Source of the DNA: Balneolaceae bacterium
Lineage (GTDB): Bacteria; Bacteroidota; Rhodothermia; Balneolales; Balneolaceae
Length of the DNA stretch: 40,370 bases
Assembly (NCBI GenBank): GCA_035638715.1
Contig: DASQZL010000110.1
Coordinates: 1 to 40,370, forward strand
Direction: 5' to 3'
The translations under genes were made by a program, and so were the position numbers. Shown in pieces: positions 11,925 through 29,874 of this stretch. Each line of letters opens with the position of its first letter. Position 1 is the first letter of the stretch. The notes under the pieces are model-generated. The model did not search any database. It saw nothing but the letters and a program-made list of their open reading frames with translations, and was not told where the DNA came from.

Positions 11925-12959
11925 CTAACTTCGTTTTGATTTCATCCGGACGTGCCCGGGAATCAAATCATCAAGGCAATTGCATCCGAGGAGCGTCATA
12001 ATAATTTTCAATTGGCGTTTCCATCGTTGAACCAAACTTTCCAAGCCTTCATACCCTCCCTGGTCCACCGCTTTAATTATCGGCCCGGCAGCAGCACAAA
12101 AGTCTGCCCCCAGGCAAAAGGCTTTAGCAATATCAAAACTACTACGGATACCGCCGGAGGCAATAACGCTAAACTCATATTCATTTTTCAGTTGCACCAC
12201 TTGCTCGAGAGCTTCAGCTGTTGGGATACCCCATTCATCGAACATCGTATCCGGATTTTGATTGGAGGGGCGCCGGTTTTCAACCTTGGACCAGCTCGTC
12301 CCTCCTGCCCCGGCTATATCAATTACATCAACATTGTTTTGAAGCAGTCGTTCAGCAACGGCACCCGAAATGCCTGCACCGGTTTCCTTCACAAAAATAG
12401 GCAGATTGCTTTCCTCCTTAAGCTGACGAATTCCATCTTCAATACCTTTGAAATTCCGGTCGCCTTCAGGCTGCATTAATTCCTGCAGCGGGTTCAGGTG
12501 AACAATGATGGCATCAGCACGAATACTTTGTACAAGCAATTCACGATTTTCTTTTGATAACCCGTCGATAAGCTGTGCACCACCGATATTTGAGGCAATA
12601 AAAGCAGTGGGAGCTTTTTCACGGACGATTGAGAAACTCTCAATCGTACTTTCGTCCTCCAGCATCACACGCTGGCTGCCCACCCCAAATGGCAGATTGT
12701 ATGCTTCGCAAAATTCTGCCAAAACCGCATTGACGGCTGTTCCGTCTATATAGCCGCCGGTCATCGAAGAAATAAACAATGGGAAGGAATAAGTTCGTCC
12801 CAGGAAGGAGGCTTCAGTTGAAACTTTATCAATATCAACTTCGGGGAGGGCATTATGAACAAAATCATAATGGGCAAATCCTGTATCACGCTTATAATTC
12901 ATATCGCCCCCCACTGTCAGGTCAACATGATCCTTTTTTCGTTGTTTGATATTACTCAT
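11925..12959 (-). CDS. fni: Type 2 (FMN-dependent) isopentenyl-diphosphate delta-isomerase
   Basis: N-terminal RKKDHVDL, SSMTGG, VKETGAGIS and AGAGGTSW segments characteristic of IDI-2 TIM-barrel enzymes. Confidence 0.9.
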   Translation of the reverse strand: MSNIKQRKKDHVDLTVGGDMNYKRDTGFAHYDFVHNALPEVDIDKVSTEASFLGRTYSFPLFISSMTGGYIDGTAVNAVLAEFCEAYNLPFGVGSQRVMLEDESTIESFSIVREKAPTAFIASNIGGAQLIDGLSKENRELLVQSIRADAIIVHLNPLQELMQPEGDRNFKGIEDGIRQLKEESNLPIFVKETGAGISGAVAERLLQNNVDVIDIAGAGGTSWSKVENRRPSNQNPDTMFDEWGIPTAEALEQVVQLKNEYEFSVIASGGIRSSFDIAKAFCLGADFCAAAGPIIKAVDQGGYEGLESLVQRWKRQLKIIMTLLGCNCLDDLIPGHVRMKSKRS

Positions 12960-13019: not shown

Positions 13020-14042
13020 TCATGATTCCGAGCGTTTTACCCGCACAGCATGATAGCCTTCTTCGGCGAGCCAAAAACCTACTCCCGGGATGGCAGTAAT
13101 AATTTCCTGCACCCGTGTAGCTAACGAGATGGCAATGAGTTCAGAGGGTGACAACCCTATAAAAGCGGATAGTAAAGCATAGACACTTTCCTGTATGCCT
13201 AATCCACCCCAAATAACAAAAGCTGCACTTCGAACACCAAAGGTTATCAGCCGAAGTGTTACGGCATCTATGATGTTTATCGGGGTATTCATCAGCCACG
13301 CTGCGAACCAAATTTCGCTTGCCATTGCAATATCGCCTGCAACCCGTATCACAACAGAAATGATAAAATTCCGGGGATGACGGTAAATCCCATCAAGGTG
13401 CTGTTCTATTTCATCTGCTTTTTCCCGGGCCGAGGATAAAAATCCACCGTCCTTTCCCGACCATTTTTCAAGCACTTTGGAAACGCCGGATGAACGCTGC
13501 AGGCGAATAAAAAAATAGGTCCCTACAGCAAGGATTAAACAAATGGAAGGGATTAAAATTAAAATTTTTTCATTCACCGACTGCGTTAACATCAATAACA
13601 TCCCTAATATCAAAATAACGATTGTCGAAACGGCGTGAGCGGTTTTATCTGCTATCAGGGATGAAATCGTTGTAGTATTATCCACATTTCTGTTATTCAG
13701 AAAACTACCACGTACGAAAATACCACCGATAGTGGCTGTCGGCAGTAGCCGGTTGATTGACTGGGCAAACCAGAATCCCCGGATAAACAGGCTGTCGCGG
13801 GGCAGATTCTTGCCGGGGAATACAAATTTCCATCCGTAAGCACGGGAGCACAATTCAAATGGATAAAAAAGGGCCAACAGTAATAAGGCAGGTCCGCCCT
13901 TTGCAATAGCTTTGGAAAATTTGGAAAAGCCGGTCCACCAGATTAATACGATCAGAATAATGATACCCGCCGCTACGCCAATTACTGATGATATTCTGCT
14001 CCAGGATGGTCCGGAGTTCTGACTTTGTTGTTGGTTGCTCAT
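13020..14042 (-). CDS. Flippase-like membrane protein (lysyl-PG-synthase TM region / UPF0104 family), HpnL-like
   Basis: 340-aa polytopic protein with the family-typical N-terminal helix followed by a …FELCSRAYGWKFVF… segment and LLPTATIGGIFVRG. The HpnL assignment rests on context, since hopanoid genes lie on both sides. Confidence 0.6.
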   Translation of the reverse strand: MSNQQQSQNSGPSWSRISSVIGVAAGIIILIVLIWWTGFSKFSKAIAKGGPALLLLALFYPFELCSRAYGWKFVFPGKNLPRDSLFIRGFWFAQSINRLLPTATIGGIFVRGSFLNNRNVDNTTTISSLIADKTAHAVSTIVILILGMLLMLTQSVNEKILILIPSICLILAVGTYFFIRLQRSSGVSKVLEKWSGKDGGFLSSAREKADEIEQHLDGIYRHPRNFIISVVIRVAGDIAMASEIWFAAWLMNTPINIIDAVTLRLITFGVRSAAFVIWGGLGIQESVYALLSAFIGLSPSELIAISLATRVQEIITAIPGVGFWLAEEGYHAVRVKRSES

Positions 14043-14089: not shown

Positions 14090-15487
14090 TTAACCACTCA
14101 CTGCAAAGCGGGTTAAGTGACGGGCTGTCGTCCATATAGGGCCTCCAATACTATGCACTTCATCCAGGGTTTCCTCAAAAGCTTCGAGGAACCAGTCAGC
14201 GTCACCTTTATTAATCATTAACGGGGGGAGAATTTTTATGATGTCAACGTTATGAGCTGCAACCTGCGTTAAAATGTGATGATCTTCAATAAGTGGCATG
14301 ATAATGGCCTGCGGGAATAATGATTGATTCGTCGGATGCATCATCTTCCACGCCGCTCTGTAGCGCAGGGCCTTGGGTTTGCCAAACTCAATACCAATCA
14401 TCAGCCCTTTGCCCCGGACTTCCTTAAGGAAATCATACTTTGGAATCATTGCGCGAAGCTTCTCAAGCATATATTCACCGGTTTTTTGAGCATTTTGCGG
14501 CAGGTTTTCCGATTCGGTTACTGCCAGGCTTCCCAAACCGCAGGCCATGGGCAGGCCTCCGCCTCCGAAGGTTGATGAGTGAACTTTACCCCGATCCATA
14601 CTTGAGTAAACCGAATGATAGATTTCATCCCGCATCAGCACCGCACCAACGGGCACCATGCCGCCGGAAAGCGATTTCGAGACTAATACCATATCAGGTT
14701 CAAGGTCCGGTACATGCTGATAACAGAATAATTTTCCTGTGCGTCCCATACCGGTCTGAATTTCATCCATGATGAAAACGGCATCATGCTTATTACACAA
14801 TTTCTGGACGCCCAGCATATATTCAGCGTTAGCCGGGTAAACGCCTTTCCCCTGAATGGGTTCTAAAATCACGCCGGCGATGTCATTTTTTTGAAATGCC
14901 CGTTCAAGGGCATCCAGATTGTTCAGCGGAACATTTACAGGACCGGGCAGAAAGCTGACGAATCCATCCTTAAAATTACTCGAACCATTAATCGACAATG
15001 ATCCGTAAGTGAGTCCGTGAAAGGCATGTTCGCAGTACACTACTTTTTCTTTGCCGGTCGTTGCACGACAAAATTTTAAAGCTGTTTCCACGCATTCCGT
15101 ACCGGAATTACCGAAGTACACTTTATCGAGATGTGGAACTTTCTCCAGCAGGGCTTCAGCAAGAAGGCCGGTCAATGGATTGGTCCCCATCGCCAATTTC
15201 CAGGTATCGTTAAGCTCGAGATAATCGTTTATGACCTCTTTTATGACCGGATGATTGCGACCCATATTGAACATGCCAAAACCGGAAAGAAAATCGAGAT
15301 ATTTTTCTCCTTTATCATCCCAGAGATAAGCTCCCCGCCCTTCTACATAGTTACGGTTGAACCCGATAGTTTTAAGTACTTTTGAAAATACGGGGTTGAC
15401 GTGCTTTTTATAAAGATCAGAATTTTTGTCGCGGTTTTCCTCAACCAGTTTTTTTAAGTCGAATCCGCCAGTGCTGGATTTATTCAT
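14090..15487 (-). CDS. Class-III PLP aminotransferase (ornithine/putrescine aminotransferase-like), HpnO-like by context
   Basis: GNSGTECVETALKF, DEIQTGMGRTGK, the Schiff-base lysine context VSKSLSGG, and HSSTFGG. The family call is firm; the hopanoid substrate is inferred from context. Confidence 0.8.
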   Translation of the reverse strand: MNKSSTGGFDLKKLVEENRDKNSDLYKKHVNPVFSKVLKTIGFNRNYVEGRGAYLWDDKGEKYLDFLSGFGMFNMGRNHPVIKEVINDYLELNDTWKLAMGTNPLTGLLAEALLEKVPHLDKVYFGNSGTECVETALKFCRATTGKEKVVYCEHAFHGLTYGSLSINGSSNFKDGFVSFLPGPVNVPLNNLDALERAFQKNDIAGVILEPIQGKGVYPANAEYMLGVQKLCNKHDAVFIMDEIQTGMGRTGKLFCYQHVPDLEPDMVLVSKSLSGGMVPVGAVLMRDEIYHSVYSSMDRGKVHSSTFGGGGLPMACGLGSLAVTESENLPQNAQKTGEYMLEKLRAMIPKYDFLKEVRGKGLMIGIEFGKPKALRYRAAWKMMHPTNQSLFPQAIIMPLIEDHHILTQVAAHNVDIIKILPPLMINKGDADWFLEAFEETLDEVHSIGGPIWTTARHLTRFAVSG

Positions 15488-15783
15488 AAAATATAATTAC
15501 CTCAATAGGGTTGAAAAACAAGATATATATTGAATTAAAGATAACAAAAATCATTATTGCTTGTGCAACTTTTTCTGGAATCCGATTTCTGTTTTTCAAT
15601 TATACAGCCAGTTTCGTACCTTCCTGAAAGATCATCCAGAATATTCAGCTTTTTAGTAGCTGCAAACTTTCATTTTAATAAAATTGCAGCATTTGTAGTC
15701 GAAGATATCTCTAATCAGTCCGTTTTTTTTATTATTTTCAGATAAAAGTTTCATAGCCGAACCTGTCTAAAATTACTGGTAAA

Positions 15784-16914
15784 ATGAAAGAAAATCTCCG
15801 CTTCCCGTCACCTGAATTATCACAGCATCCACTAATGGGGGCAAGGCTGGGAAATCTCTTTCAGCTGTTTTCGCAACAGCAGGGAGTGCTACCTTCTAAG
15901 TGGCCTTTTGTCCTGGCTTTTATGGGGTCTGCACTGGCACGCAGCCCCTTTTCGATGATTGACCGGTGGATTGCATCCCGGAAAAAAGCGGTAGAAAATT
16001 TGGAACCCCCGGTTTTTATTGTCGGATACTGGCGATCCGGAACGACCCATTTGCATAATTTACTGGGTCAGTCGCCGGACCTCGGTATCATCACCCCGCT
16101 CGGAAGCGGCCTGCCCGATGAGTTGTTAACACTTGGCACATGGTTTGAGCCGTTGCTCCAAAAAGGGCTGCCCGAAGATCGTGGCGTTGACCGTGTAGCT
16201 GTTAACCCCCAATCTCCACAGGAGGATGAAATTCCGGTAGCGAACCTGCAGAAATTATCGGTTTTTCACGCTCTCTACTTTCCTGCCAATTTCCGCAAAA
16301 ATTTTAATCGGGGCGTTTTTTTTGATGATGTTTCTGATAATGAAATTGAAGAATGGAAATCCGCGATGCTCTATTTTATTGGCAAGGTAGCCATCCATCA
16401 GGATAAGCAACCCCTGCTGATAAAAAATCCCGTTTACACAACACGTATTCATCTGCTTCGCGATCTCTGGCCTAACGCTCGCTTCATCCATATATATCGG
16501 AATCCCTACCGGGTTTTTCGGTCAACAAAGTATTACTACCCTGAAATAATTGATGAACTGGGTCTGCAGGCCTACGACCCTGCGGAGATTGAACCCGTAA
16601 TTTTAAATTCTTACCCGAGAATGCTCAATAAATTGTATGAAGACACAAATGACTTGCCGGAAAATCAATTTGTTGAAGTACAATATGAAAAACTGGACGA
16701 AAATCCGGTAGAGGTGCTTAAGAAAATTTATCACCAGCTGAATTTACCGGGCGGCTGGGAAGCGGCAAAGTCCAGCACTGAAGCATATTTAAAATCTATT
16801 GCTGACTATCGCAAGAACACCTATTCGTATGCCCCCGAGGATTTTGAAAAAGTAAATGAAAATTGGGGCAAATATGTAAACAAATGGGGATATGATTTAC
16901 CTGATACAGAGTAA
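15784..16914 (+). CDS. PAPS-dependent sulfotransferase family protein (paralog 1)
   Basis: 5'-phosphosulfate-binding loop GYWRSGTTHL (RSGTT at 16033..16047). FIHIYRNPYRVFRS is the region where a 3'-phosphate-binding motif would be expected. Clearly paralogous to 17166..18353. Confidence 0.8.
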   Translation: MKENLRFPSPELSQHPLMGARLGNLFQLFSQQQGVLPSKWPFVLAFMGSALARSPFSMIDRWIASRKKAVENLEPPVFIVGYWRSGTTHLHNLLGQSPDLGIITPLGSGLPDELLTLGTWFEPLLQKGLPEDRGVDRVAVNPQSPQEDEIPVANLQKLSVFHALYFPANFRKNFNRGVFFDDVSDNEIEEWKSAMLYFIGKVAIHQDKQPLLIKNPVYTTRIHLLRDLWPNARFIHIYRNPYRVFRSTKYYYPEIIDELGLQAYDPAEIEPVILNSYPRMLNKLYEDTNDLPENQFVEVQYEKLDENPVEVLKKIYHQLNLPGGWEAAKSSTEAYLKSIADYRKNTYSYAPEDFEKVNENWGKYVNKWGYDLPDTE

Positions 16915-17165
16915 TAGGAATATCTATTGAACCGTCCCCCATCTTCCGTAGCGGGCGAAAGTCTTAAAAACCTATGAAAATTCTCTGCTTGAGTGAGGCG
17001 TGGCTACTCCTGTGTGTTTTTATGGAGTCGGCAGACATTATGCCGTTGAATTGAACAGCAGAATTAAGTTTAACAGGATGAATATAAGAATTGCGCCTGT
17101 TATGTATCCCAAACTCAGGCTAACAGCTCCTTTCTTTCATAAAAGGCTAAAGAATCTCAAAATTG

Positions 17166-18353
17166 TCACGAAACGGCTGTATTTTTGACCTCCTCGTGCT
17201 GTAATGGATATAATTTTGTAGCATATCCAAATGCATCAAAACAATGGCCCCAGGCATCTGCAATTTTCCTTTTCTTGGCATTGGGCAGGCTGGGATAATT
17301 GTTGGTCTCATAGTCAGCGATAGATTCGATATATTCCAGCAAGCCAGGTTTAATTTCAGAAAAAGATTCCAATCCCAAATCGTGATAAATTTTTTCAATT
17401 GCCGCAACACGATTCTGAACGAGGTCCTCATAAGCCAACTGCGTTAGATTACCCTCCGGTATCAATGCTTTATCTTTTAAAAAAGTGTGATACATCTTTT
17501 TATATCGCCAAATGACGTAATCTTCCAACCCCTGCAGGTTCTTGGATTGATAACAGCAGTACGGCAGTGATTTCCGCTCCATCTTCATAGTAGATTGATA
17601 TACGCGATACGGGTTTCTGTAAATATGAATGAACTGCGCGTCCGGAAAAACCTCAAGCAATAATTGAATCTTAGCCGTATTAGTCGGAGCCTTGAAAAGT
17701 ATTGTAGCATCCGGATCACTTCGATATAACAGTTTTTGAGCAAATTTATAAAGCGCTTTTTTCCATTTCGTCCGTTGATTGCTACTGGCATCCTTAAGGC
17801 TTAGCATATATTTAAAATGATCACGGAATTCAGGGAAATAGCGGCTCATGTGGGTCGATAAGAATGTGCTGGAACAGAGTCCCCACTCCTCGCCAAGCGG
17901 CGAATCAGCAGAATGTTTTACTTTATCCTGGGGGCGTTCATCCGGGCTGAACCAAGAGGCAAGTTTATGGGCAATATTTTTGAATGTTAATAAAGTCTCA
18001 GGGAATAGTGTTTCGGTGACGGTTGGATATACAAATCGTTTATCATTTGTTAACAGTCGCCATAAATGTGTAGTTCCGCTTCGATGATGGCCAATGATAA
18101 AAATGGGAGATTTAACCTCAATCGATTCTAAATCCGATCGGTATTTTTTTTGCTCCCAATGAGCAAGTGCTGTATTCATAAGACTCATTGTCGTAGTAAA
18201 GGCGGTACGGGGCCAATATCGCGGGGGAATAGTGTTGCCATATTTTTTTAGAACCTTTTTCCATTCGCTGTAAACCGTTCCCGCCAACGGACTAAATATC
18301 CAGCGGGCAAGATTTCCGATAAGTTCCTGCCTCAATGACAATGTTATAGCCAT
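17166..18353 (-). CDS. PAPS-dependent sulfotransferase family protein (paralog 2)
   Basis: IIGHHRSGTTHLWRLL (RSGTT at 18069..18083, minus strand), FIHIYRNPYRVYQS and the C-terminal IADYETNNY, which parallels IADYRKNTY in paralog 1. Confidence 0.8.
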   Translation of the reverse strand: MAITLSLRQELIGNLARWIFSPLAGTVYSEWKKVLKKYGNTIPPRYWPRTAFTTTMSLMNTALAHWEQKKYRSDLESIEVKSPIFIIGHHRSGTTHLWRLLTNDKRFVYPTVTETLFPETLLTFKNIAHKLASWFSPDERPQDKVKHSADSPLGEEWGLCSSTFLSTHMSRYFPEFRDHFKYMLSLKDASSNQRTKWKKALYKFAQKLLYRSDPDATILFKAPTNTAKIQLLLEVFPDAQFIHIYRNPYRVYQSTMKMERKSLPYCCYQSKNLQGLEDYVIWRYKKMYHTFLKDKALIPEGNLTQLAYEDLVQNRVAAIEKIYHDLGLESFSEIKPGLLEYIESIADYETNNYPSLPNAKKRKIADAWGHCFDAFGYATKLYPLQHEEVKNTAVS

Positions 18354-18546
18354 AAAAATTAATTAGTGGGAAAAATTAATAATATGTATAATATAATCGA
18401 GCTAAATTTATTTTTATTATAAAGTTTCTCAAATAAATTTTATCAAATTAAAAGAACAATTAGCCGAGCTAATTTAAATGATATAATATAATTATTTTCC
18501 AGTCCGTCTCGTTCAAAATAGATTTTTAAAAAGACGATATGGAAAA

Positions 18547-19671
18547 TTAAATTTCATTTTTAACTACCCGTCCTCTCCAACGCATTCGTTCGCCCTGCCA
18601 GTAACGTATGGCTGAGGTCCATGTCATGGCCAAAAAAAGTGAAGCTGTAAGAGGAAAAGCTATAGCCCAGGACCAATTTAGGTTGTAATACCAAAGAGTG
18701 GGTAGATAAGTACATAACATAATTAAAACGGTGACCAGCGATGCCCAAAGCAGGTATCCCGAAAATAAAAATACCCCGACAATCGGAAGTACATAGGAAA
18801 AAAACATTAATAACGTACATAATAGCAAAAGTGTGATAGAATAGCTAAGCTGTGTATATGCCGTACGTGCTACCATATTCCATAGCTCGGTTAAACCGGT
18901 ATAGGGGCGTATGCTTTGTGCGGAGTGGGTCAACCCAAGCCATGTCCGATACCCCTGATCTTTCACCTGCCTGGCAAGTGTACAATCGTCAATTAATGTA
19001 TCTTTCAGAGAAGCAAAGCCGCCAATATCATCAAGCACCTGTTTCTTCGTCAATATACATCCTCCCGCGGCTGCAGCTACAAGATCGGAATCAGAATTCG
19101 ATACCCTAAACGGGTACAATAGCTTAAAAAAATATATGAATGCAGGCATCAGTAATTTGTCCCAAAAGCCGGTAAATGTAGGCATAGCCATGAGCGAAAT
19201 AAAAGCATACGGCTCACTTTTCAGTCGCTCTCGCAGGCCGCTAATCACCCCTTGTTTAAGTTTAATATCGGCATCAAGGAGCATGACAAAAGAAGTTTTA
19301 ACGCGTTTCCTACCCTGCTCCAAAGCCCATAATTTACCGCTCCATCCCTGTGGCCGCCGGCTGCCTTTTATGATGGTTAAATGATCGCCGCCAATTTCTT
19401 TTGCAATTCGGGCCGTATCATCATCAGAATTATCATCGATGACCAATATGTTCAAATTTTTTCCCTGTCGACATACTGCAGAAATGGTTTGATTGATGAC
19501 CTCAGACTCATTTCTGGCGGGTATAAGCACGGTTACATCACTTAAATCAACGAGATTACTTTTATCATCGGTTGACTCCCAGCTTTCTTTCGTTCGCCAT
19601 GGCTGCCAGGGAAGCACTAATATGATAACCCAGATGACCAGCGAAACGATTGGCAGTGTTGAGATAAGCAT
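18547..19671 (-). CDS. Membrane-anchored family-2 glycosyltransferase, HpnB/HpnI-like
   Basis: N-terminal TM helix, then the GT2 core VLIPARNE…IDDNSDDDT…LLDADI, then several C-terminal TM helices. This architecture matches hopanoid-associated GT2 enzymes. I cannot decide between HpnB and HpnI by eye. Confidence 0.78.
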   Translation of the reverse strand: MLISTLPIVSLVIWVIILVLPWQPWRTKESWESTDDKSNLVDLSDVTVLIPARNESEVINQTISAVCRQGKNLNILVIDDNSDDDTARIAKEIGGDHLTIIKGSRRPQGWSGKLWALEQGRKRVKTSFVMLLDADIKLKQGVISGLRERLKSEPYAFISLMAMPTFTGFWDKLLMPAFIYFFKLLYPFRVSNSDSDLVAAAAGGCILTKKQVLDDIGGFASLKDTLIDDCTLARQVKDQGYRTWLGLTHSAQSIRPYTGLTELWNMVARTAYTQLSYSITLLLLCTLLMFFSYVLPIVGVFLFSGYLLWASLVTVLIMLCTYLPTLWYYNLNWSWAIAFPLTASLFLAMTWTSAIRYWQGERMRWRGRVVKNEI

Positions 19672-19740: not shown

Positions 19741-20904
19741 TTATGCTATTGCTTCTGCTTCTTTATCCTTCTTTTTTTCTTTTTCTTCGAGTGCCTCTTT
19801 ATAAGCAGTGGGTTTCAGCGGATTAGACTCCTTGGCAAAGTCTTCCCACTCGTATTGACGTGGAATATCAGGAGCCATTTCGCCTTCTGTCTTAGGCCCG
19901 GTAATGGATTTTTTCAGTGCTTTAAGCGGGTGCGAGAAGGCGTCCTCGGCGGCTGTTCCTTCATAACCGCAATGAGCCATGCAATTATCGCACTTTGGAT
20001 TGCGACCGGTGCCCCATTTCTCCCAGTCGGTTTCCTCCATTAATTCTTCGAAGCTTTGAGCATAGCCTTCATTTACCAACAGGTAGCAGGGGCGTTGCCA
20101 TCCGAAAATGTTATAAGTGGGCATACTCCAGGGCGTGCATTGATACTGTTGGTTCCCGGCCAGAAAATCCAGAAACAGGCTGCTGTGATTAAATGACCAC
20201 CTACTGCCCCGCTCTTCTTGTTCCCTGAAAATTTCTCTGAACAGATTTTTCGTTTTATCTCTGCCCAGAAAACTGTCTTGATCGGGAGCAAATTCATAGC
20301 TGTATCCAGGAGAAACATCAATGCCGTCTACGCCAATATCCTCAACAAAATCGAAGAAATCAGCTACCCGTTCAGGTTCTGCATTATCAAACAGGGTGCA
20401 ATTGATATCGACATTAAACCCTCTTCCCTTGGCCATCTTAATTGCCTCAACAGCCCGGTCAAAAACTCCTTCACGCTCTACAGCCTTGTCATGTTCTTTT
20501 CTCAGGCCATCAAGGTGAATGGTGAATGTTAAATAAGGAGAAGGCTCAAAAAGGTCCAGTTTCTTTTTAAGCAGCACGGCATTCGTACATACCGATACAA
20601 ATTTTTTCCGATCGATAATACCCTGAACAATTTTATCAATCTCTTTATGGATAAGCGGTTCTCCGCCGGGAATAGCTACCATAGGCGCCCCGCACTCATC
20701 AACTGCTGACAAGGCATCTTCCACGCTCATGCGTTTTTTCAATATCTCTTTGGGATAAGCAATCTTCCCACACCCGGAACATGACAAATTACACTGGAAC
20801 AAGGGTTCAAGCATCAGTGTCAATGGATACTTATCCTCCCCCTTTAATTTCTTTCCGAGAATGTATTTTGCCATTTTAAACGTTTGCCTGAATGATACAC
20901 CCAT
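19741..20904 (-). CDS. hpnH: Adenosyl-hopene transferase (radical SAM) HpnH
   Basis: Radical-SAM CNLSCSGC (Cx3Cx2C) at 20770..20793. The N-terminal MGVSFRQTFKMAKYILGKKL…YPLTLMLEP and downstream GGEPL are typical of HpnH. Divergent from sqs-shc. Confidence 0.88.
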   Translation of the reverse strand: MGVSFRQTFKMAKYILGKKLKGEDKYPLTLMLEPLFQCNLSCSGCGKIAYPKEILKKRMSVEDALSAVDECGAPMVAIPGGEPLIHKEIDKIVQGIIDRKKFVSVCTNAVLLKKKLDLFEPSPYLTFTIHLDGLRKEHDKAVEREGVFDRAVEAIKMAKGRGFNVDINCTLFDNAEPERVADFFDFVEDIGVDGIDVSPGYSYEFAPDQDSFLGRDKTKNLFREIFREQEERGSRWSFNHSSLFLDFLAGNQQYQCTPWSMPTYNIFGWQRPCYLLVNEGYAQSFEELMEETDWEKWGTGRNPKCDNCMAHCGYEGTAAEDAFSHPLKALKKSITGPKTEGEMAPDIPRQYEWEDFAKESNPLKPTAYKEALEEKEKKKDKEAEAIA

Positions 20905-21423: not shown

Positions 21424-22542
21424 ATGAAAGATAAAAAAAGCAATAGCAATACAAATACCGTTTCTAAATCCAATGACAAAGATGGTATAAGCAATTTATC
21501 TTATTCATCACAAAGAATTAAAAACTTCCGTGAAAATTATTCCGATACAGAACTCCAGTCTTATTTATTAGAAAACGTATCACGCACTTTTGCTCTTACT
21601 ATACCGGAGCTTCCAGATCCGCTTATTCGTGTTGTTTCTAATGCTTACCTGCTCTGCCGAATTGTGGATACCGTTGAAGATGAGCCAAATTTAACGCTGT
21701 CGCAGAAAGAAAACTTTTGCAGTCGCTTTATAGATGTTGTTTCAGGGACGGAGGACCCGGTACAATTTAGCCGTGACTTGGCTCCTTATCTTTCTAATGA
21801 AACCCTGGAAACGGAAAAAGAGCTAATTCTGTTGACAGACAGGGTCATCAATATCACCCATCAATTTAATGAACGACAGCAAAAAGCGATGGAACGGTGT
21901 ATTCGCATCATGGCAGATGGCATGGCGTTCTTTCAGCAACAGGGTTCAAAGCATGGGTTGCGAAATCTGCAGGATGTTAACAAATACTGCTATTACGTTG
22001 CTGGGGTTGTAGGTGAAATGCTGACGGAACTTTTTTGTATTTATTCCCCTGCGATTAACGAAAATCATGATGAATTGATGGATCTTGCGGTTTCATTTGG
22101 TCAGGGATTGCAAATGACAAACATCCTGAAGGACGTGTGGGAGGATTATGACCGATCGGCGTGCTGGCTACCCAGAAACTATTTTGAAAATGACCTGGCA
22201 AATTTAGAACAGGGAAAATCAACCGAAGATTTTAAAGAAGGTATTGATGAACTGATCGGGGTTACCCATGGACACCTGCAGGATGCAATGAGTTATATTT
22301 TACTCATTCCAGCTGAGGAAAAGGGTATTCGCCGTTTTTGTTATTGGGCTGTCGGAATGGCTATATTAACCATAAAGAAAATTCATAAAAATTTAGAATA
22401 TACAAATGGTGATGAGGTAAAAATTTCGCGGAAAAGTGTAAAAGCAACAATTTTATTTACAAATATTACGGTCGGAAGCAATCGTCTCTTAAAGTTGTTA
22501 TTTGACGCCACCCGCTGGGGGCTTCCTGATCCCAGAAAATAA
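21424..22542 (+). CDS. sqs: Squalene synthase (farnesyl-diphosphate farnesyltransferase, single-enzyme SQS type)
   Basis: SRTFALTI, YLLCRIVDTVEDE (DTVED at 21667..21681), YCYYVAGVVGEMLT and LQMTNILKDVWED parallel the conserved SQS segments. About 45 aa of Ser/Asn/Lys-rich N-terminal extension. Confidence 0.85.
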   Translation: MKDKKSNSNTNTVSKSNDKDGISNLSYSSQRIKNFRENYSDTELQSYLLENVSRTFALTIPELPDPLIRVVSNAYLLCRIVDTVEDEPNLTLSQKENFCSRFIDVVSGTEDPVQFSRDLAPYLSNETLETEKELILLTDRVINITHQFNERQQKAMERCIRIMADGMAFFQQQGSKHGLRNLQDVNKYCYYVAGVVGEMLTELFCIYSPAINENHDELMDLAVSFGQGLQMTNILKDVWEDYDRSACWLPRNYFENDLANLEQGKSTEDFKEGIDELIGVTHGHLQDAMSYILLIPAEEKGIRRFCYWAVGMAILTIKKIHKNLEYTNGDEVKISRKSVKATILFTNITVGSNRLLKLLFDATRWGLPDPRK

Positions 22543-22579
22543 GCTTAACTGTGTTTTAGAACGAAGATCAAACTTTAAA

Positions 22580-25288
22580 ATGGAAAAGAAGCATTCTCCT
22601 AAAAAGGCAACCTCAATAAGCGAAAACAACGATAAGCAAACACATCTCGACCAAGCAATAAAAAAAGCAAGATCTTCCCTCCTTTCTGATCAGCATGAAG
22701 ACGGATATTGGTTTTATGAACTTGAAGCCGACTGCACGATTCCCGCTGAATACATCATGATGATGCACTACATGGATGAAATTGACGAGGAATTGCAGGA
22801 AAAAATTGCTGTCTATTTGCGGCGTCATCAGAATGAAGCCGGCGGGTGGCCCCTTTATTATGGAGGGAAATCCGATTTGAGCTGTTCAGTCAAAGCATAT
22901 TATGCGCTTAAAATGGCCGGAGATGATATTGATGCGCCTCATATGACCAAGGCCAGGGAACTCATTCTTTCCATGGGAGGTGCGGCCAAATCCAATGTTT
23001 TTACACGTATCGCCCTGGCGCTTTTCGAACAAATTCCCTGGCGCGCGGTCCCGTTTATTCCAGTGGAGATTATGACCTTTCCCGACTGGTTTCCTCTCCA
23101 CCTGCAAAAGGTTTCCTACTGGTCAAGAACCGTTATGGTTCCGTTGTTCATTTTATATAGCCTGAGAGCCAAAGCTCGTAATCCGCATAATGTCGGGGTT
23201 CAGGAGCTTTTTTTAGTTCAGCCTGAAAAAGAGGACGACTATTTTAAAATTCGTTCTATGACAAATCGTTTTATTTTTGGCCTTGAACGAATTGGCCTGA
23301 AACTTGAGCCATATATCCCCAACCGCTTCAGAGAACATGCAATAAAGAAAGCGGAAGAGTGGTTTGTGGCTCGCCTCAACGGTGAAGATGGACTTGGAGC
23401 AATTTTTCCAGCGATGGTTAATGCGTATGAAGCCCTCGATTTGCTGGGTTATCCCGAAGATCATCCCCACCGGAAAACTGCTAAAAAAGCACTTCAAAAA
23501 TTATTGGTTGTCAGAGAAGATGAGGCCTATTGTCAGCCCTGCCTGTCTCCCATCTGGGACACCATTTTATCTGCAGGCGCCATACAGGAAACAGGCATCG
23601 CAGACCAGGATCAAGAACAAGCCCTCGTCAATGCAACCGAGTGGCTGGCTAACAAACAGTTAACGGATGAGCCCGGTGACTGGCGAAATGACCGCCCCGA
23701 TTTGCAAGGTGGCAGCTGGCCGTTTCAGTTTCGCAACGATTACTATCCGGATCTTGACGATACGGCATTCGCCGCTTTTGTGTTGCATTCTATCGATTCG
23801 GAGAAGTACAAGGACAATATTTTGCGTGCGGCCCGCTGGCTGAAAGGCATGCAATCCAGTAATGGCGGGTTTGCGGCATTTGAATATGACAACACCTACT
23901 ACTATTTAAACGAGATACCATTTGCAGATCACGGGGCCTTGCTGGACCCTCCTACTGCGGATGTAAGTGCCCGCTGCGCAATGCTTTTCGGTCAACTGGA
24001 AAATGAATATCCGGAGTTTCGTGAGCCGTTAAACCGCTGCCTTGATTATTTATTTGAGGTACAGGAAGAAGATGGTTCCTGGTTTGGACGCTGGGGAACA
24101 AATTATATTTATGGGACCTGGTCGGTACTGATTGCCTGTGAGTCCGCCGACATTCCTCCGGAAGAGCCGGAAATTCAGCGGGCCGTTGCCTGGCTGAAAC
24201 GGAAACAGCGTGAAGACGGCGGCTGGGGAGAGGATAACTGGAGTTACCATGATCCAGAAACCCGTGGTGAAGCAGATCGCAGCACTTCCTTCCAGACAGC
24301 GTGGGCTGTAATGGGACTGATTGCAGCCGGCGAGGTGGACTCTGAAGCTGTCAGAAGGGGTATTGATTTTCTACTGTCAACCCAGGAAGAAGATGGATTC
24401 TGGAGCGATCCGGAATTCACGGCTCCCGGTTTCCCCCGGGTTTTCTATTTGAAATATCACGGGTATACAAAATTCTTTCCACTCTGGGCGCTGGCTAAAT
24501 ATCAACGTAAAATAGATGATGAAAAATTAATCTCCAATGTGCAGGATAAGACGTCCAAAAATAAAATTGGTATTGTCGTAGCCCTCCCCCGTGAATTGCA
24601 GACGCTTGGCAATCATCATAAAGCCGGCAGTGAAATTATTCATCACTCTGAACGGATATTGATCGGACAGTCCGGCGTCGGAGCTAAGAATGCAAAAAAG
24701 GCAGCCGAACGCCTTATCAACCACGGAGCCAATATTTTAATCAGCTGGGGTACGGCTACGGCCCTGACTCCCGATATTGCCCCGGGAACAATAGCAATCC
24801 CGGATAAAGTACTGACTACCGAACAGGATATTTTTGAAACGGACCGTAGGTTGAGAGAACATTTATTCAACGAACTGCCGCTTGATGGTATGTTCGTGCA
24901 CGATACCATTTGTGAAACGGACGAAATACTTGCCAATACATCACAAAAGACGACTTTGGCAGCCCGTACAAACGCCAGGATAGCGGATATGGAGACTGCA
25001 GCTGTTGCCAGAGTAGCCAAAGAACATGATATTCCATTCCTGGCCATTCGATCCGTGTCTGATTCGGCTGAAATGCAGATTCCCCGGGCAATTAAGAATA
25101 ATGTAAATGATGGCACGCCAAACACTTTGGGAATTTTGAGTGATGCAATATTAGAACCGAAAGATTGGTTGCCAATGATCAGCCTTTCTTATAATTTTAA
25201 CAAAGCTCAAAAGTCACTGAGTAAAATGGCTCAAATTATATTACCCTATTTGAATCGCCAGGCAGATAATATAAAACTTCAAAAATAA
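22580..25288 (+). CDS. shc: Squalene-hopene cyclase fused in frame to a C-terminal HpnG-type nucleosidase/phosphorylase domain
   Basis: Start moved to ATG 22580 (MEKKHSPKK), because the ORF-track start at 22502 overlaps the sqs 3' end. The SHC part (22580..~24511) has DGYWFYELE, repeated QW-type motifs and the catalytic DLDDTA at 23750..23767. A 17-aa linker follows. The part from 24563..25285 reads KIGIVVALPRE…GQSGVGAKNAKKAA…LISWGTATAL…ADMETAAVA…FLAIRSVSD, a PNP/UDP-1 nucleosidase fold as in HpnG. There is no stop codon between the two parts. Confidence 0.88.
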   Translation: MEKKHSPKKATSISENNDKQTHLDQAIKKARSSLLSDQHEDGYWFYELEADCTIPAEYIMMMHYMDEIDEELQEKIAVYLRRHQNEAGGWPLYYGGKSDLSCSVKAYYALKMAGDDIDAPHMTKARELILSMGGAAKSNVFTRIALALFEQIPWRAVPFIPVEIMTFPDWFPLHLQKVSYWSRTVMVPLFILYSLRAKARNPHNVGVQELFLVQPEKEDDYFKIRSMTNRFIFGLERIGLKLEPYIPNRFREHAIKKAEEWFVARLNGEDGLGAIFPAMVNAYEALDLLGYPEDHPHRKTAKKALQKLLVVREDEAYCQPCLSPIWDTILSAGAIQETGIADQDQEQALVNATEWLANKQLTDEPGDWRNDRPDLQGGSWPFQFRNDYYPDLDDTAFAAFVLHSIDSEKYKDNILRAARWLKGMQSSNGGFAAFEYDNTYYYLNEIPFADHGALLDPPTADVSARCAMLFGQLENEYPEFREPLNRCLDYLFEVQEEDGSWFGRWGTNYIYGTWSVLIACESADIPPEEPEIQRAVAWLKRKQREDGGWGEDNWSYHDPETRGEADRSTSFQTAWAVMGLIAAGEVDSEAVRRGIDFLLSTQEEDGFWSDPEFTAPGFPRVFYLKYHGYTKFFPLWALAKYQRKIDDEKLISNVQDKTSKNKIGIVVALPRELQTLGNHHKAGSEIIHHSERILIGQSGVGAKNAKKAAERLINHGANILISWGTATALTPDIAPGTIAIPDKVLTTEQDIFETDRRLREHLFNELPLDGMFVHDTICETDEILANTSQKTTLAARTNARIADMETAAVARVAKEHDIPFLAIRSVSDSAEMQIPRAIKNNVNDGTPNTLGILSDAILEPKDWLPMISLSYNFNKAQKSLSKMAQIILPYLNRQADNIKLQK

Positions 25289-25302: not shown

Positions 25303-26304
25303 ATGAACGTAGATGATACGACTCAATCATTAAATAAAGATGTACAGAAACATATAGACCGTATTAATGAACTGATTACTAACGGCGATTTCCAGGATAG
25401 TCCCGATACTTTATATGAACCAATTCGGTATATTTTAAATACCGGTGGCAAGCGCTTGCGACCACTATTGACACTTTTTGGCTGTTACCTTTTTTCTGGT
25501 GAGACTGAGAATGCTTTGATGCCGGGTATAGGTATTGAGCTGTTTCATAACTTTACCTTGATCCACGACGATATCATGGATAATGCCCCCCTGCGGCGTG
25601 GTCAGGAAACGGTTCACCGGAAGTGGAATCAAAATGTCGCCATCCTTTCCGGAGATACCATTTTGTTTAAGGCCTATCATTATCTTATGCAGGTAAATGA
25701 ACCGCTTATAAAGGATGTCATCATGCTTTTTAATGAGTGTGCCATTGATGTCTGTGAAGGACAGCAGTTTGATATGGATTTCGAAAATCGCGAGAGGGTA
25801 AGTGAAGAGGAATATCTGAAAATGATTCGATTAAAAACCGCTGCGGTGCTGGGATTTTCACTTCAGCTTGGAGCTTTAATAGGTGGTGCCAATGTAGAAA
25901 ATACGGAAGCACTTAAAAATTTTGGCATTAATATTGGACTTGGTTTTCAATTGAAAGACGATCTTCTGGATGTCTTCGGAGATTTTGGTAAATTTGGTAA
26001 GCAAGTAGGCGGAGATATAATTGCAAATAAGAAAACATATTTGTTAATTAAAGCAATGGAACTTGCTAATGCAGAACAAAATAAAAAACTTCAAGGGTGG
26101 TTACATGGTGATTTAAGCAACGAAGAAAAAGTAAAACGTGTTACCCAATTATATAAAGAACTCCATATTAGGCAGCTAACCGAACAGAAAATTAGTGAAT
26201 TTTTTGAAATCGCTTTAACTTATTTAAATAAGATCGATTGTCCAGAGCATAGAAAAGAAGAATTAGCTGATTTTTCAAGTTCATTGATAGAACGTGAGAA
26301 CTAA
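25303..26304 (+). CDS. Short-chain trans-polyprenyl diphosphate synthase (FPP/GGPP synthase family)
   Basis: First Asp-rich motif DDIMD at 25567..25581, followed by LRRG. Second motif FQLKDDLLD. Product chain length cannot be read off reliably. Confidence 0.88.
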   Translation: MNVDDTTQSLNKDVQKHIDRINELITNGDFQDSPDTLYEPIRYILNTGGKRLRPLLTLFGCYLFSGETENALMPGIGIELFHNFTLIHDDIMDNAPLRRGQETVHRKWNQNVAILSGDTILFKAYHYLMQVNEPLIKDVIMLFNECAIDVCEGQQFDMDFENRERVSEEEYLKMIRLKTAAVLGFSLQLGALIGGANVENTEALKNFGINIGLGFQLKDDLLDVFGDFGKFGKQVGGDIIANKKTYLLIKAMELANAEQNKKLQGWLHGDLSNEEKVKRVTQLYKELHIRQLTEQKISEFFEIALTYLNKIDCPEHRKEELADFSSSLIEREN

Positions 26305-26343
26305 TTAGAAAAATTTAATGTTAACTAAAAAAAGGTGTTCGTT

Positions 26344-28266
26344 ATGGAAAGTGAAATTAGTGCCGGCCCTTTACTTGAACCCATCCATTCGCCAGATGAT
26401 TTAAAGAAACTGGATCCGGATCAACTGGTTGAATTGTGTGATGAATTGAGAGATTATATTATTGAAACGGTCTCAGTCCATGGCGGGCATTTTGGAGCAA
26501 GTCTGGGCACCGTTGAACTTACTGTGGCCCTGCACTACGTATTCGATACCCCCAGAGATCGTCTGGTATGGGATGTTGGACATCAAGCCTATGGACACAA
26601 AATTTTGACCGGACGGCGCCCTCAATTCCATACGAACCGTAAATATAAAGGATTGGCTGGTTTTCCAAAGCGGGAAGAAAGTGAATATGATACCTTTGGT
26701 GTTGGCCATTCAAGCACTTCTATTTCTGCTGCTTTGGGAATGGCTACAGCCCGCGATCTTGACGGAGGCGATAACCACGTCGTTACAATCACCGGCGACG
26801 GGGCCATGACGGCGGGATTAGCTTTTGAGGGACTCAATAATGCCGGGTATCTCAATAAGGATATGATTGTCATCCTTAATGATAATGATATGTCTATAGA
26901 TCCCAATGTTGGTGCTCTTAATGAATATTTGGTTGAGATAGCAACCAGTAAAACGTTTAATAAACTGCGTGATGAGATCTATAACATGCTCAGCCAGTTT
27001 AAATCGGCCGGAGAGAAGATGCAGAAAGTTGCCTCCAGGCTTGAAAAAGCTATTGGTACGGCTATCACTCCCGGCGGACTATTTCAGGCGCTGGGTTTCA
27101 AGTATTATGGCCCTGTGGATGGACATAATATCGATACGCTCCGTCGTACACTCAATGATCTGAAGGATATTCCGGGTCCAAAGCTGTTGCACGCCGTTAC
27201 AGTTAAGGGGAAAGGATTTGCCCCGGCGGAGAGAGAGCAAACGAAATGGCACTCACAGAGCAGCCCATTCGATAAAATAACCGGAGAATCGCTTGCAAAA
27301 GATAACGGTCCGGATATTCCGCGTTATCAGCATGTTTTTGGAGATGCTATTGTCGAATTGGCTGAGGAAGATGATCGTATTGTCGGTATTACCCCGGCGA
27401 TGCCCAGCGGATCCAGCCTCTGGCCGCTCATGAAAGCATTTCCGGAACGGGCCTTCGATGTAGGTATTGCGGAACAACACTCCATCACATTTGCAGCCGG
27501 CCTGGCTACTGAAGGCAAAAAAGCATTTGCCGCCATCTATTCCACCTTCTTGCAACGGGCTTATGACCAGGTAATTCACGATGTCGCTATTCAAAATCTG
27601 CCTGTCGTATTTTGTATTGATCGTGCCGGACTGGTCGGGGCTGATGGACGTACCCACCATGGAGCTTATGATATTTCATATCTCCGTAATGTACCGAATA
27701 TGATTGTGTCTTCTCCCCTCAATGAACAGGGACTGCGCGATCTTATGTACACTGCATCTAAATATGAAGAATCGCCATGGGCTATTCGCTATCCCCGCGG
27801 AGAGGCAACGGGTATGGAAATGCGCGATGAATTTCACTCCGTAGAAATAGGAAAAGGAGAATGCCTGCGCGAGGGCGATGAAATAGCGATTCTTAGTTTT
27901 AGCCCCATTGGCAATTACGTAATTGAGGCAGCGGATAGACTCGAAGAAGAGGGTATCAACGTTGGACACTATAATATGCGGTTTGCCAAACCGTTGGATA
28001 CCGAATTAATTGATCAGGTTTGTCATTCGTATGAGCGAATCATAACAATCGAGGACGGTACTGTACTCGGTGGTTTTGGCGGGGCCGTTGCCGAATATCT
28101 ATCGGATAAACCCTCTCGCGTACCTGTAACAATTATGGGTATCCCGGATCGGGTTATTGAACATGGCACGCAGCGGCAGCTTCATGATGAAATTGGCATT
28201 GGTCCGGATGGCATCATAGAGCAGGTCAAGAGCGTTCAAAAGGGAATTGTTGCCCAAACAAGTTAA
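26344..28266 (+). CDS. dxs: 1-deoxy-D-xylulose-5-phosphate synthase
   Basis: GHFGASLGTVELTVALHYVF, GHQAYGHKILTGR, the ThDP motif GDGAMTAGLAFEGLNNAG and GIAEQH. I prefer ATG 26344 over the GTG at 26335 used by the ORF track. Confidence 0.95.
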   Translation: MESEISAGPLLEPIHSPDDLKKLDPDQLVELCDELRDYIIETVSVHGGHFGASLGTVELTVALHYVFDTPRDRLVWDVGHQAYGHKILTGRRPQFHTNRKYKGLAGFPKREESEYDTFGVGHSSTSISAALGMATARDLDGGDNHVVTITGDGAMTAGLAFEGLNNAGYLNKDMIVILNDNDMSIDPNVGALNEYLVEIATSKTFNKLRDEIYNMLSQFKSAGEKMQKVASRLEKAIGTAITPGGLFQALGFKYYGPVDGHNIDTLRRTLNDLKDIPGPKLLHAVTVKGKGFAPAEREQTKWHSQSSPFDKITGESLAKDNGPDIPRYQHVFGDAIVELAEEDDRIVGITPAMPSGSSLWPLMKAFPERAFDVGIAEQHSITFAAGLATEGKKAFAAIYSTFLQRAYDQVIHDVAIQNLPVVFCIDRAGLVGADGRTHHGAYDISYLRNVPNMIVSSPLNEQGLRDLMYTASKYEESPWAIRYPRGEATGMEMRDEFHSVEIGKGECLREGDEIAILSFSPIGNYVIEAADRLEEEGINVGHYNMRFAKPLDTELIDQVCHSYERIITIEDGTVLGGFGGAVAEYLSDKPSRVPVTIMGIPDRVIEHGTQRQLHDEIGIGPDGIIEQVKSVQKGIVAQTS

Positions 28267-28959: not shown

Positions 28960-29862
28960 TTAAATCATTTTTGAATTGGATATAGCTTTAATTTCTTGTG
29001 TATCGTACGCGGGAATTGCACCGTTTTTTGAGGCAACATAAGCGCCGGCAGCATTCGCAAAAGCAATAATCTCTTTCCCCGTTTTACCAGATTTAATCCC
29101 AGACAACAGAGCGGCGGTAAAGGCGTCCCCTGCCCCAACTGTATCGGCCACATTGACTTCATGGGACGGGCAACTAAACCAGGAATCATGATACAGTAGC
29201 TCAGCTCCCTCCGCACCTCTTGTAACTGCAATCACCGGACAGTCAAATTTTTGCGCCAGCATTCGGACGGATCCTTCGGATGATTTTGTAATTTTGAACC
29301 ATTCGTATAATTGTTCCAACTCTGATTCATTTATTTTAAGAATATCAGCTGCATAGAGGGAAGTTTCTATAATATCACGATTAAAATGAGGCGCTCGCAA
29401 ATTAACATCAAATACTTTGTGGCAATCACTATTTAATAACTGCTGAATGGTATTTCGACTTCTGCCGTTGCGTTGAGCCAAACTGCCAAATACGATGCCC
29501 CACGCTTTATCCAAGCGTTTGTAAAGAGCATTCTTTGGACTTATATAATCCCAGGCGGTTGGCTCTATGAATTGATAATTCGGATCGCCTGTCCTATCCA
29601 GCTCAACGGCAACAAAACCGGTCTCCCGTTTATTATCAATCTGTATAAGTTCGGTTGACAGTCCTTTTGCTCTGAGTCGCCGCAATGCCTCCTTTCCCAA
29701 ACGATCATCCCCTACCCGACTAAAAATAGTACTTTGTTCGCCTAAATTGTGCAAGTGAAGACACACATTCAGCGGAGCCCCACCCAGATAGAGCCCTGAA
29801 GGCAAACCATCCCACAAAATTTCACCGACACAAATGATTTCATTGTTAATATCGCGGGTCAT
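28960..29862 (-). CDS. PfkB-family carbohydrate kinase, probable fructokinase
   Basis: N-terminal GEILWD…GGAPLNV, C-terminal DTVGAGDAFTAALL. Adjacent to the GH32 gene. Confidence 0.85.
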   Translation of the reverse strand: MTRDINNEIICVGEILWDGLPSGLYLGGAPLNVCLHLHNLGEQSTIFSRVGDDRLGKEALRRLRAKGLSTELIQIDNKRETGFVAVELDRTGDPNYQFIEPTAWDYISPKNALYKRLDKAWGIVFGSLAQRNGRSRNTIQQLLNSDCHKVFDVNLRAPHFNRDIIETSLYAADILKINESELEQLYEWFKITKSSEGSVRMLAQKFDCPVIAVTRGAEGAELLYHDSWFSCPSHEVNVADTVGAGDAFTAALLSGIKSGKTGKEIIAFANAAGAYVASKNGAIPAYDTQEIKAISNSKMI

Positions 29863-29874
29863 AAGGATATGAGG

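Follow-up and report, generated by a model that had tools for sequence, protein, structure and literature searches.

Hopanoids are major membrane lipids of bacteria and rank with the most abundant molecular fossils, and the decorations of their side chains serve as taxonomic and environmental markers. The ribosyl side chain is built by HpnH and HpnG, and HpnO is tied to the formation of amino-bacteriohopanepolyols (amino-BHPs), as given in the gene table of a recent survey (PMC12324291). HpnA has been proposed, without proof, to turn ribosylhopane into bacteriohopanetetrol (BHT) (PMC5462960), and the functions of HpnA, HpnB and HpnL, the product of HpnB included, are not established (PMC12583986). 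The gene table and the neighbourhood surveys consulted for this pathway name no sulfotransferase, and two hpn-neighbourhood surveys of 2025 (PMC12324291, PMC12583986) never mention either sulfotransferases or sulfate. The subject of this report is a pair of genes, here called ST1 and ST2, that encode putative sulfotransferases within a hopanoid gene cluster of a Balneolaceae bacterium. They lie on contig DASQZL010000110.1 (assembly GCA_035638715.1), of which the whole stretch analysed, positions 1 to 40,370 of the forward strand, will be referred to as the window.

Sulfation of a lipid by an enzyme encoded near the genes that prepare it has a precedent in Stf3, which sulfates a hydroxylated isoprenoid lipid supplied by a neighbouring tailoring enzyme and so gives sulfomenaquinone (PMC7404182). 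The genes of the window are likened to Stf3 for this logic of function and not for their sequence, and the name Stf3 carried by some of their relatives at 45–49% identity is an automatic label from the Joint Genome Institute (JGI). Unlike the mycobacterial Stf genes, ST1 and ST2 are surrounded by hopanoid genes instead of a cyp128 operon, and their hosts are not Actinomycetota. With the canonical hopanoid pathway (HpnH, HpnG, HpnO, HpnI/J/K, HpnP/R) they share the gene cluster, a pairing with HpnO, HpnA and HpnL and, in our reading, the C35 side chain as the site of action. The enzyme family and the cluster-encoded tailoring of lipids are both known; new would be hopanoid-specific sulfotransferase clades and their predicted product.

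ST1 (15784–16914, forward strand, 376 amino acids) and ST2 (17166–18353, reverse strand, 395 amino acids) stand tail to tail, with genes for HpnL-like and HpnO-like proteins on one side and those for HpnB, HpnH, a squalene synthase-like protein (SQS) and a squalene-hopene cyclase (SHC) joined to an HpnG-like domain on the other. From the sequences and their surroundings, we consider it likely that both genes encode soluble, cytoplasmic sulfotransferases that depend on 3'-phosphoadenosine-5'-phosphosulfate (PAPS) and sulfate the C35 amino or polyol side chain of hopanoids. A preliminary description of this DNA had recognised the two open reading frames (ORFs), their tail-to-tail placement between an HpnO-like aminotransferase and the genes for a family 2 glycosyltransferase (GT2) and HpnH, and their kinship as paralogs. 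These points hold, with the GT2 now identified as HpnB and an HpnL-like gene added to the group, and the hopanoid sulfation that it proposed is supported by all the computational tests run, as described below.

The window proteins were annotated by an ORF listing together with Pfam and NCBIfam profile scans. ST1 and ST2 are 32% identical over about 368 columns, i.e., their full length (BLASTP E 6e-50), and both match Sulfotransfer_3 far above the Pfam gathering cutoff of 27 (114.5 bits, E 1.1e-32 for ST1; 118.8 bits, E 5.4e-34 for ST2) as well as Sulfotransfer_1. The 5'-phosphosulfate-binding (5'-PSB) loop RSGTTH is found in both, as noted before, at 16033–16050 in ST1 (R84–H89) and at 18066–18083 in ST2 (R91–H96), both on the strand of their gene; the ranges first given for it, 16033..16047 and 18069..18083, take in five codons only. 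The 3'-phosphate-binding (3'-PB) motif reads RNPYRVFRS in ST1 (R239 to S247, 16498–16524, forward strand) and RNPYRVYQS in ST2 (R246 to S254, 17592–17618, reverse strand). The shared segments FIHIYRNPYRV, starting at residue 234 of ST1 and 241 of ST2, and IADY, starting at residues 339 and 345, were both located in the translations, and no transmembrane segment is predicted in either protein.

Conservation was followed in an alignment of 112 ST1- and ST2-type sequences from related loci, with ST1 numbering. The R, S, G, T and T of the 5'-PSB loop are each kept in at least 108 of the 112 sequences, R239 of the 3'-PB motif is present in all 112 and S247 in 111, and K214, H236, R133 and D136 are also at least 95% conserved. 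An AlphaFold2 model, built for ST1 only and from an alignment of 30 sequences, reached a predicted local distance difference test (pLDDT) score of 94.1 and a predicted template modelling (pTM) score of 0.92. All 41 of the Protein Data Bank structures that Foldseek matched to it at E<=1e-3 are sulfotransferase-fold proteins. On the strength of these sequences and this model, ST1 and ST2 are assigned to the superfamily of PAPS-dependent sulfotransferases, and the cofactor side appears intact because the 5'-PSB and 3'-PB motifs are conserved and the sulfotransferase-fold model is a confident one.

The best Foldseek and profile matches were Stf1 (2zq5), with the best E-value and a profile E of 3e-14, and Stf9 (2z6v), with the best template modelling (TM) score (0.71/0.68). 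Both have the same fold and the same N-terminal helical extension. An assignment of ST1 and ST2 as orthologs of Stf1 and Stf9 was rejected, because the identity amounts to just 15–16% despite the common fold. Likewise rejected was the NodH/NoeE carbohydrate or Nod-factor type, for which ST1 reached 21.9 bits against a NoeE cutoff of 500 and ST2 gave no match; this sub-threshold NoeE match is all that NCBIfam returned as a name for the two proteins. Behind Stf9 and Stf1, the structural and profile neighbours are the tyrosylprotein sulfotransferases and the sulfotransferase domains of CurM and of olefin synthases (OLS) (4gbm, 4gox), with retinol dehydratase also among them.

These last neighbours raise the question of whether the sulfate would stay on the hopanoid. 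CurM/OLS sulfotransferases and retinol dehydratase use sulfate as a leaving group, and in CurM/OLS the sulfotransferase is coupled to a thioesterase that expels it. By analogy, sulfation of a side-chain hydroxyl, if transient, could drive an elimination, a cyclisation or a substitution. The outcome might be, e.g., a side chain that is unsaturated, anhydro (a cyclic ether) or substituted with an amine, and no stable sulfated hopanoid would accumulate. Such a course would agree with the failure of literature searches to turn up a sulfated hopanoid despite decades of BHP analysis. We nevertheless regard it as improbable. The CurM/OLS domains do have a Sulfotransfer_3-type fold and act on a lipid-like hydroxyl, as is proposed for ST1 and ST2, but they sit in polyketide synthase (PKS) modules and match the ST1 model with a TM score of about 0.37–0.38, below the 0.71 of Stf9. 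ST1 and ST2 are free-standing proteins of 376 and 395 amino acids with no PKS or thioesterase neighbour, for which reason a role as PKS termination domains was discarded, and no thioesterase or lyase is conserved beside them. The two to three paralogs found at each HpnO-type locus also suit a decoration at several sites better than a single activation.

The reading of ST1 and ST2 as hopanoid sulfotransferases depends most on their surroundings in other bacteria. Homolog searches of metagenome contigs returned 1561 relatives of ST1 and 405 of ST2, many of them co-located on one contig. A scan of species-representative genomes gave at least 571 relatives, none of which matched ST1 at more than 58%, and the best 80 (42–58% identity to ST1) were analysed for context. 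Since these 80 are the most ST1-like of the at least 571, what follows holds for the ST1 and ST2 clades, not for Sulfotransfer_3 proteins in general. Neighbours were counted by tblastn with the window hpn proteins and by unsupervised clustering of all neighbouring ORFs, and the identities of HpnA-like proteins and HpnN were checked against NCBIfam.

The 80 loci span at least eight phyla. Carriers include Balneolaceae, Salinivenus, Verrucomicrobiota, Planctomycetota, Myxococcota, Acidobacteriota, Desulfofustis and many cyanobacteria, the Alphaproteobacteria Azospirillum, Roseomonas, Caenispirillum and Hyphococcus, and, among Gammaproteobacteria, Ectothiorhodospiraceae and Litchfieldella/Halomonas. 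At least one hopanoid-associated family is encoded in the flanks of 67 of the 80 loci, and in 32 of the 33 that have complete flanks of 10 kb. When only the strict markers are counted (SHC, HpnH, HpnN, HpnG, HpnB, HpnC/D/E and SQS), 20 of these 33 remain. In the 13 loci that lack hpn neighbours, the surroundings are heterogeneous, with no gene family common among them, and no rival conserved context emerged. The preliminary description had reasoned that a hopanoid role would fall if the orthologs occurred mostly in genomes lacking shc/hpnH and in unrelated contexts; as to the contexts, the counts point the other way.

Individual loci, numbered here with the prefix L, show how close the association can be. 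The gene order (with <> for divergent neighbours) is SHC-HpnH-HpnG-Omp85-ST-ST-HpnL-HpnO<>ST in L004, SQS-ST-HpnO<>ST-SHC-HpnH-HpnG-HpnL in L006 and ST-ST-HpnL-HpnO<>ST in L002. L090 has HpnO-HpnL-ST-ST as a single co-directional operon, in which a stop and a start overlap. The cyanobacterial locus L088 (Leptolyngbyaceae) has both sulfotransferase types together with HpnO, HpnH, SQS, HpnG, a GT2 and transporters. On replicon p1 of Azospirillum brasilense Sp7, the order is hpnA<>ST-unknown-hpnN-shc-hpnG-hpnH; the sulfotransferase gene of this strain, present as one ST1-A copy, lies at CP012915.1 183655–184728. In L002, L004, L009 and L090, HpnL is found together with HpnO and sulfotransferases, and the divergent arrangement HpnO<>ST1, with a gap of 40–260 nt, recurs in about 19 genome loci. 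Two close relatives from one sample, L092 and L093, differ in layout: in L092, ST1 is divergent from two HpnL-like genes, and in L093 an ST2 ortholog (62% identity) follows hpnH-hpnB after 22 nt, with SQS-SHC-HpnG-FPPS-DXS alongside. Apparent sulfotransferase fusion proteins of about 745 amino acids in Azospirillum and Roseomonas were set aside as wrong-frame shadow ORFs in GC-rich DNA, without any Pfam match.

The kind of hopanoid neighbour follows the subclade of the sulfotransferase. A neighbour-joining tree with a midpoint root and no bootstrap, from which the ST2 ortholog of L093 was left out, puts 28 sequences in the ST2 clade, in two sub-branches, and these come from HpnO-type loci in which HpnO is the partner in most cases; L001, a member that ends with its contig, shows no HpnO. 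The ST1-O subclades, which occur in many phyla and include ST1 of the window, are directly beside HpnO and mostly divergent from it (40–260 nt). The ST1-A subclade is directly beside an HpnA-like short-chain dehydrogenase/reductase in Alpha- and Gammaproteobacteria and cyanobacteria. ST1-type genes neighbour HpnO in 30 loci and the HpnA-like protein in 30 loci, and the ST1 tree requires just two changes of partner type, where 2000 label shuffles required 18.9 on average and never fewer than 12. Because Cyanobacteria, Ectothiorhodospiraceae and Caulobacterales are present on both the HpnO- and the HpnA-paired sides, this pattern does not reflect host phylogeny alone. HpnO-type loci have two to three sulfotransferases and HpnA-type loci one, and ST1 and ST2 form distinct, separately conserved clades by their sequences, which fits the earlier suggestion that two paralogs stand for two sites or two acceptors.

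Linkage across so many genomes could also arise if the sulfotransferase genes were inactive or mere passengers, clustered through shared horizontal transfer and not through shared function. Hopanoid genes are frequently mobile in blocks, and the sulfotransferase genes are reshuffled relative to hpnO in the closest relatives L001, L092 and L093. On the other side, the ORFs are intact, with the cofactor motifs kept across the 112 sequences, and GC is even, at about 0.40–0.45 across ST1 and ST2 and in line with the surroundings, so that a horizontal-transfer island at these genes was rejected. Moreover, the association survives many independent rearrangements, in at least eight phyla and with subclade-specific partners, which argues for selection for a shared function and makes a passenger status highly improbable.

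Two observations concern the carriers themselves. The closest matches of the window proteins come from a Balneolaceae metagenome-assembled genome (MAG), at 67% for SHC, 67% for HpnO and 58% for ST1. Many carriers are saline or marine, among them Salinivenus, Balneolaceae and Ectothiorhodospiraceae, isolates from Great Salt Lake and from salt lakes, MAGs of marine cyanobacteria and the Desulfofustis MAG PB-SRB1; Azospirillum, from soil and rhizosphere, is a carrier too, and a bias of the carriers to sulfate-rich environments is possible.

In the window itself, the neighbour of ST1 is a class-III aminotransferase (14090–15487, reverse strand; Pfam Aminotran_3 E 1.4e-91), predicted to carry out the C-35 amination that leads to aminobacteriohopanetriol. 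The label HpnO-like is supported because this protein, aligned over 99% of its length, shares 48% identity with the last aminotransferase gene product of the canonical Streptomyces hopanoid cluster, whose order is hpnC-D-E-pps-shc-x-hpnH-ispG-dxs-aminotransferase. The 296 nt between this gene and ST1 (15488–15783) form a divergent intergenic region, an arrangement that recurs in relatives, and are the presumed site of both promoters. Adjoining the aminotransferase gene is that of an HpnL-like membrane protein with a flippase-like LPG_synthase_TM domain (13020–14042, reverse strand; Pfam E 3e-26), which narrowly missed the TIGR03476 cutoff of 195.65 with 180.7 bits. On the far side of ST2 follow the GT2 gene (18547–19671, reverse strand) and that of the adenosyl-hopene transferase HpnH, a radical SAM protein with a DUF3463 domain (19741–20904, reverse strand; TIGR03470 535 bits). 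The GT2 scored 383.5 bits with the model of the hopene-associated glycosyltransferase HpnB (TIGR03469), over its cutoff of 379.25, and an identification as HpnI was therefore rejected.

Further on, on the forward strand, are the SQS_PSY-type squalene synthase-like protein (21424–22542; Pfam E 7.4e-51) and a single ORF (22502–25288) that encodes both SHC (TIGR01507 865 bits, residues 47–671) and the HpnG-like phosphorylase (TIGR03468 144 bits, residues 713–908). This ORF of 928 amino acids runs in frame without a stop at the junction. SHC and HpnG are separate in L093, as overlapping genes of 647 and 250 amino acids, and in L009, where a stop closes the cyclase and a different frame encodes HpnG; the single ORF of the window could be a real fusion, contain an internal start or stem from a sequencing indel. 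The supply of isoprenoids is represented by a polyprenyl (farnesyl diphosphate, FPP) synthase and 1-deoxy-D-xylulose-5-phosphate synthase (DXS) (25303–28266, forward strand; Pfam) and, beyond HpnL, by a type-2 isopentenyl diphosphate isomerase (11925–12959, reverse strand; TIGR02151 359.9 bits).

Because it concerns the acceptor, the adjacency of ST2 and hpnB deserves attention. ST2 comes directly after hpnB, with a gap of 193 nt in the window, and probably closes a transcription unit hpnH-hpnB-ST2; the gap is the 22 nt already given in L093, HpnB-like GT2 genes occur in at least 12 related loci, and the product of HpnB is, as said, not established. The sulfate might then go to a sugar added by HpnB, or else to a different lipid or glycan of the envelope (lipid A, an ornithine lipid or an exopolysaccharide) that is co-regulated with hopanoids in membrane remodelling, and 'LPS sulfotransferase NodH' is indeed the JGI label on a few relatives. 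We hold such acceptors to be unlikely, if somewhat less so than a transient sulfate. It is HpnO or HpnA and HpnL, and not HpnB, that stand closest to the sulfotransferases and do so most often, complete HpnO-HpnL-ST-ST modules (L002, L090) do without any glycosyltransferase, and the NoeE model scored far below its cutoff. A sulfated glycosyl-hopanoid, besides, would still be a sulfated hopanoid.

The wider family points in the same direction. Sulfotransferases of Azospirillum ramasamyi (L097) and Gloeothece PCC 7822 (L098) are 33–35% identical to ST1 over 95% of its length, and each is encoded last in a lipid-tailoring operon; unlike ST1 and ST2, they belong to different clades and would act on other lipid scaffolds, and they are likewise uncharacterised. 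The A. ramasamyi plasmid operon (L097:357–8104), aldehyde dehydrogenase-crtI-crtI-acyltransferase-glycosyltransferase-ST, is similar to a cluster for C30 carotenoid glycoside esters, and that of the Gloeothece plasmid (L098:1–8101) reads type I PKS-PKS-hypothetical-oxidoreductase-ST; the two gene sets suggest further undescribed sulfated lipids. With such distant members in carotenoid and polyketide-lipid clusters and the Stf proteins as the nearest solved structures, lipid alcohols look, by analogy, like the usual acceptors of the family. In view of the same distant members, polysaccharides, which had been left beside other lipids as possible acceptors, become less likely.

Returning to the sulfation of the hopanoid side chain, the data show the fold and cofactor motifs of the enzymes, their place in the cluster and their subclade-specific linkage across phyla to HpnO, HpnA, HpnL and the core hpn genes, whereas the acceptor, the sulfated positions, the sequence of the steps and the transport are what we infer for a pathway of the following kind. 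SHC would form hopene, HpnH and the HpnG-like domain would add the ribosyl side chain, and the HpnO-like transaminase would convert a C-35 aldehyde into the amine of aminobacteriohopanetriol. ST1 and ST2 would then use PAPS to add one sulfuryl group each, at separate positions of this chain, most likely on hydroxyls and possibly on the C-35 amine. Sulfation would take place on the inner side of the membrane because PAPS is cytoplasmic and the enzymes appear soluble; the zwitterionic or anionic product, mono- or di-sulfated, would be flipped or exported, perhaps via the HpnL-like protein with its MprF-type flippase-like domain. In the wider set of loci, HpnA and HpnO would complete C-35 in alternative ways, with OH or NH2 as the result, and the sulfotransferase subclade that travels with either would act right after it, on BHT or on aminotriol.

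The sequences offer a few hints on specificity. ST1 may, if anything, recognise a feature common to both substrates, i.e., hydroxyls, because no residue, charged ones included, separates HpnO-paired from HpnA-paired ST1 at 80–85% conservation. Compared with ST1, ST2 has two extra conserved arginines (R171, R194) and is missing R53 and D/E113, and the arginines hint weakly at an action on an intermediate that is already anionic or sulfated.

Several points weigh against this scheme. The same lack of a residue signature means that the sequences give no clue to the position of the acceptor, and there are several candidates for the catalytic base (H89/H96, E147 in SPQEDE and the invariant R133 and D136). 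The CysC, CysN and CysD proteins of E. coli, used as tblastn queries, had no match in the window or in 93 related loci, which thus show no gene for an APS kinase or ATP sulfurylase. PAPS would have to be made by genes in another part of the genome, and its supply is assumed for ST1 and ST2 instead of being encoded at the locus. Several loci consist, within 10 kb, of HpnO<>ST alone. A BLAST survey of 2017 made no hpnO call in Acidobacteria Mor1 despite the presence of shc and hpnH (PMC5462960), and for this reason the HpnO-like clade may differ from the genetically proven HpnO of R. palustris. Finally, phrase searches of the literature returned no report of sulfated hopanoids or BHPs, in keeping with the earlier remark that no description of a biosynthetic sulfated BHP was known. 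Among the papers that pair a sulfotransferase with hopanoid, bacteriohopane or SHC, those checked by abstract or text were all irrelevant.

A broader proposition is that mono- to tri-sulfated BHPs, derived from BHT and aminotriol, are widespread anionic or zwitterionic membrane lipids, made by dedicated hopanoid sulfotransferase subfamilies and overlooked because they are missed by standard positive-ion and periodate-based BHP methods; to this we give even chances. One of the 2025 surveys (PMC12324291 or PMC12583986) reported no obvious new candidate genes by the alphaproteobacterial hpn clusters and found, in A. brasilense Sp7, adenosylhopane as the sole hopanoid detected and no periodate-degradation products, though the gene set was full, with a method that follows Hopmans et al. 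2021. Such a lipid profile is compatible with an undetected polar product. The method in question reportedly relies on positive-ion detection.

If the proposition is true, the makers would be cyanobacteria, Alpha- and Gammaproteobacteria, Verrucomicrobiota, Planctomycetota, Myxococcota, Acidobacteriota and Balneolaceae-type Bacteroidota; saline habitats are home to many of these. Sulfation would then be a new type of hopanoid decoration, it would add a new lipid class, and it would give a biochemical context to the still-unexplained neighbourhood of HpnA, HpnL and HpnO. As standard methods would miss sulfated BHPs, workflows in use would under-report the hopanoids of some organisms and current BHP inventories would be incomplete, with A. 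brasilense Sp7 as one possible case. A charged head group on hopanoids could affect membrane behaviour under high salt or low phosphate, and sulfate esters could be reactive precursors of sedimentary anhydro-hopanoids, a diagenetic link that is speculation. Culturable carriers include A. brasilense Sp7 and Nodosilinea nodulosa PCC 7104, and further carriers are Caenispirillum salinarum, Litchfieldella qijiaojingensis KCTC 22228 and Hyphococcus sp. DH-69.

As to expression signals in the window, a promoter and terminator scan of 15300–18700 gave no signal beyond the shuffled background, with no terminator in the 251-nt convergent spacer between ST1 and ST2, and no RNA genes came up when the window was scanned for Rfam families and tRNAs. 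A Shine-Dalgarno sequence is missing upstream of both ST1 (15754–15786) and ST2 (18351–18383).

Some further genes were noticed near the sulfotransferases of other loci. Directly downstream of ST1-A, 14 alphaproteobacterial hopanoid loci encode a protein of about 360–415 amino acids without a Pfam or NCBIfam match (e.g., L096:13248–14168 in A. brasilense Sp7 p1, L087:11053–12300 and L081:11105–12184), which may be a further uncharacterised hopanoid-related gene. In the cyanobacterial loci L026, L045, L046, L051, L062 and L088, an ATP-binding cassette (ABC) exporter resembling cyclic-peptide exporters (TIGR01194) and an AcrB-type resistance-nodulation-division (RND) pump replace HpnN, and this pair may serve as an alternative route of hopanoid export. 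Omp85/TamA-like outer-membrane genes adjoin the sulfotransferase and hopanoid module in L004 (3559–4857 and 17093–19060), L074 (7852–9696) and five more alphaproteobacterial loci. Just upstream of the HpnO-HpnL-ST-ST operon, L090:1–3238 encodes a fatty-acid hydroxylase, a Sulfotransfer_2 protein, a Zn-alcohol dehydrogenase and an acyltransferase, a gene set that may belong to a second sulfolipid pathway. In the window, the isoprenoid genes are directly followed by those of a PfkB sugar kinase and a glycoside hydrolase of family GH32 (invertase/fructanase-type) (28960–31470, reverse strand), which are apparently unrelated to the sulfotransferases and their proposed role, and a DUF2480 protein is encoded at 33219–33755.

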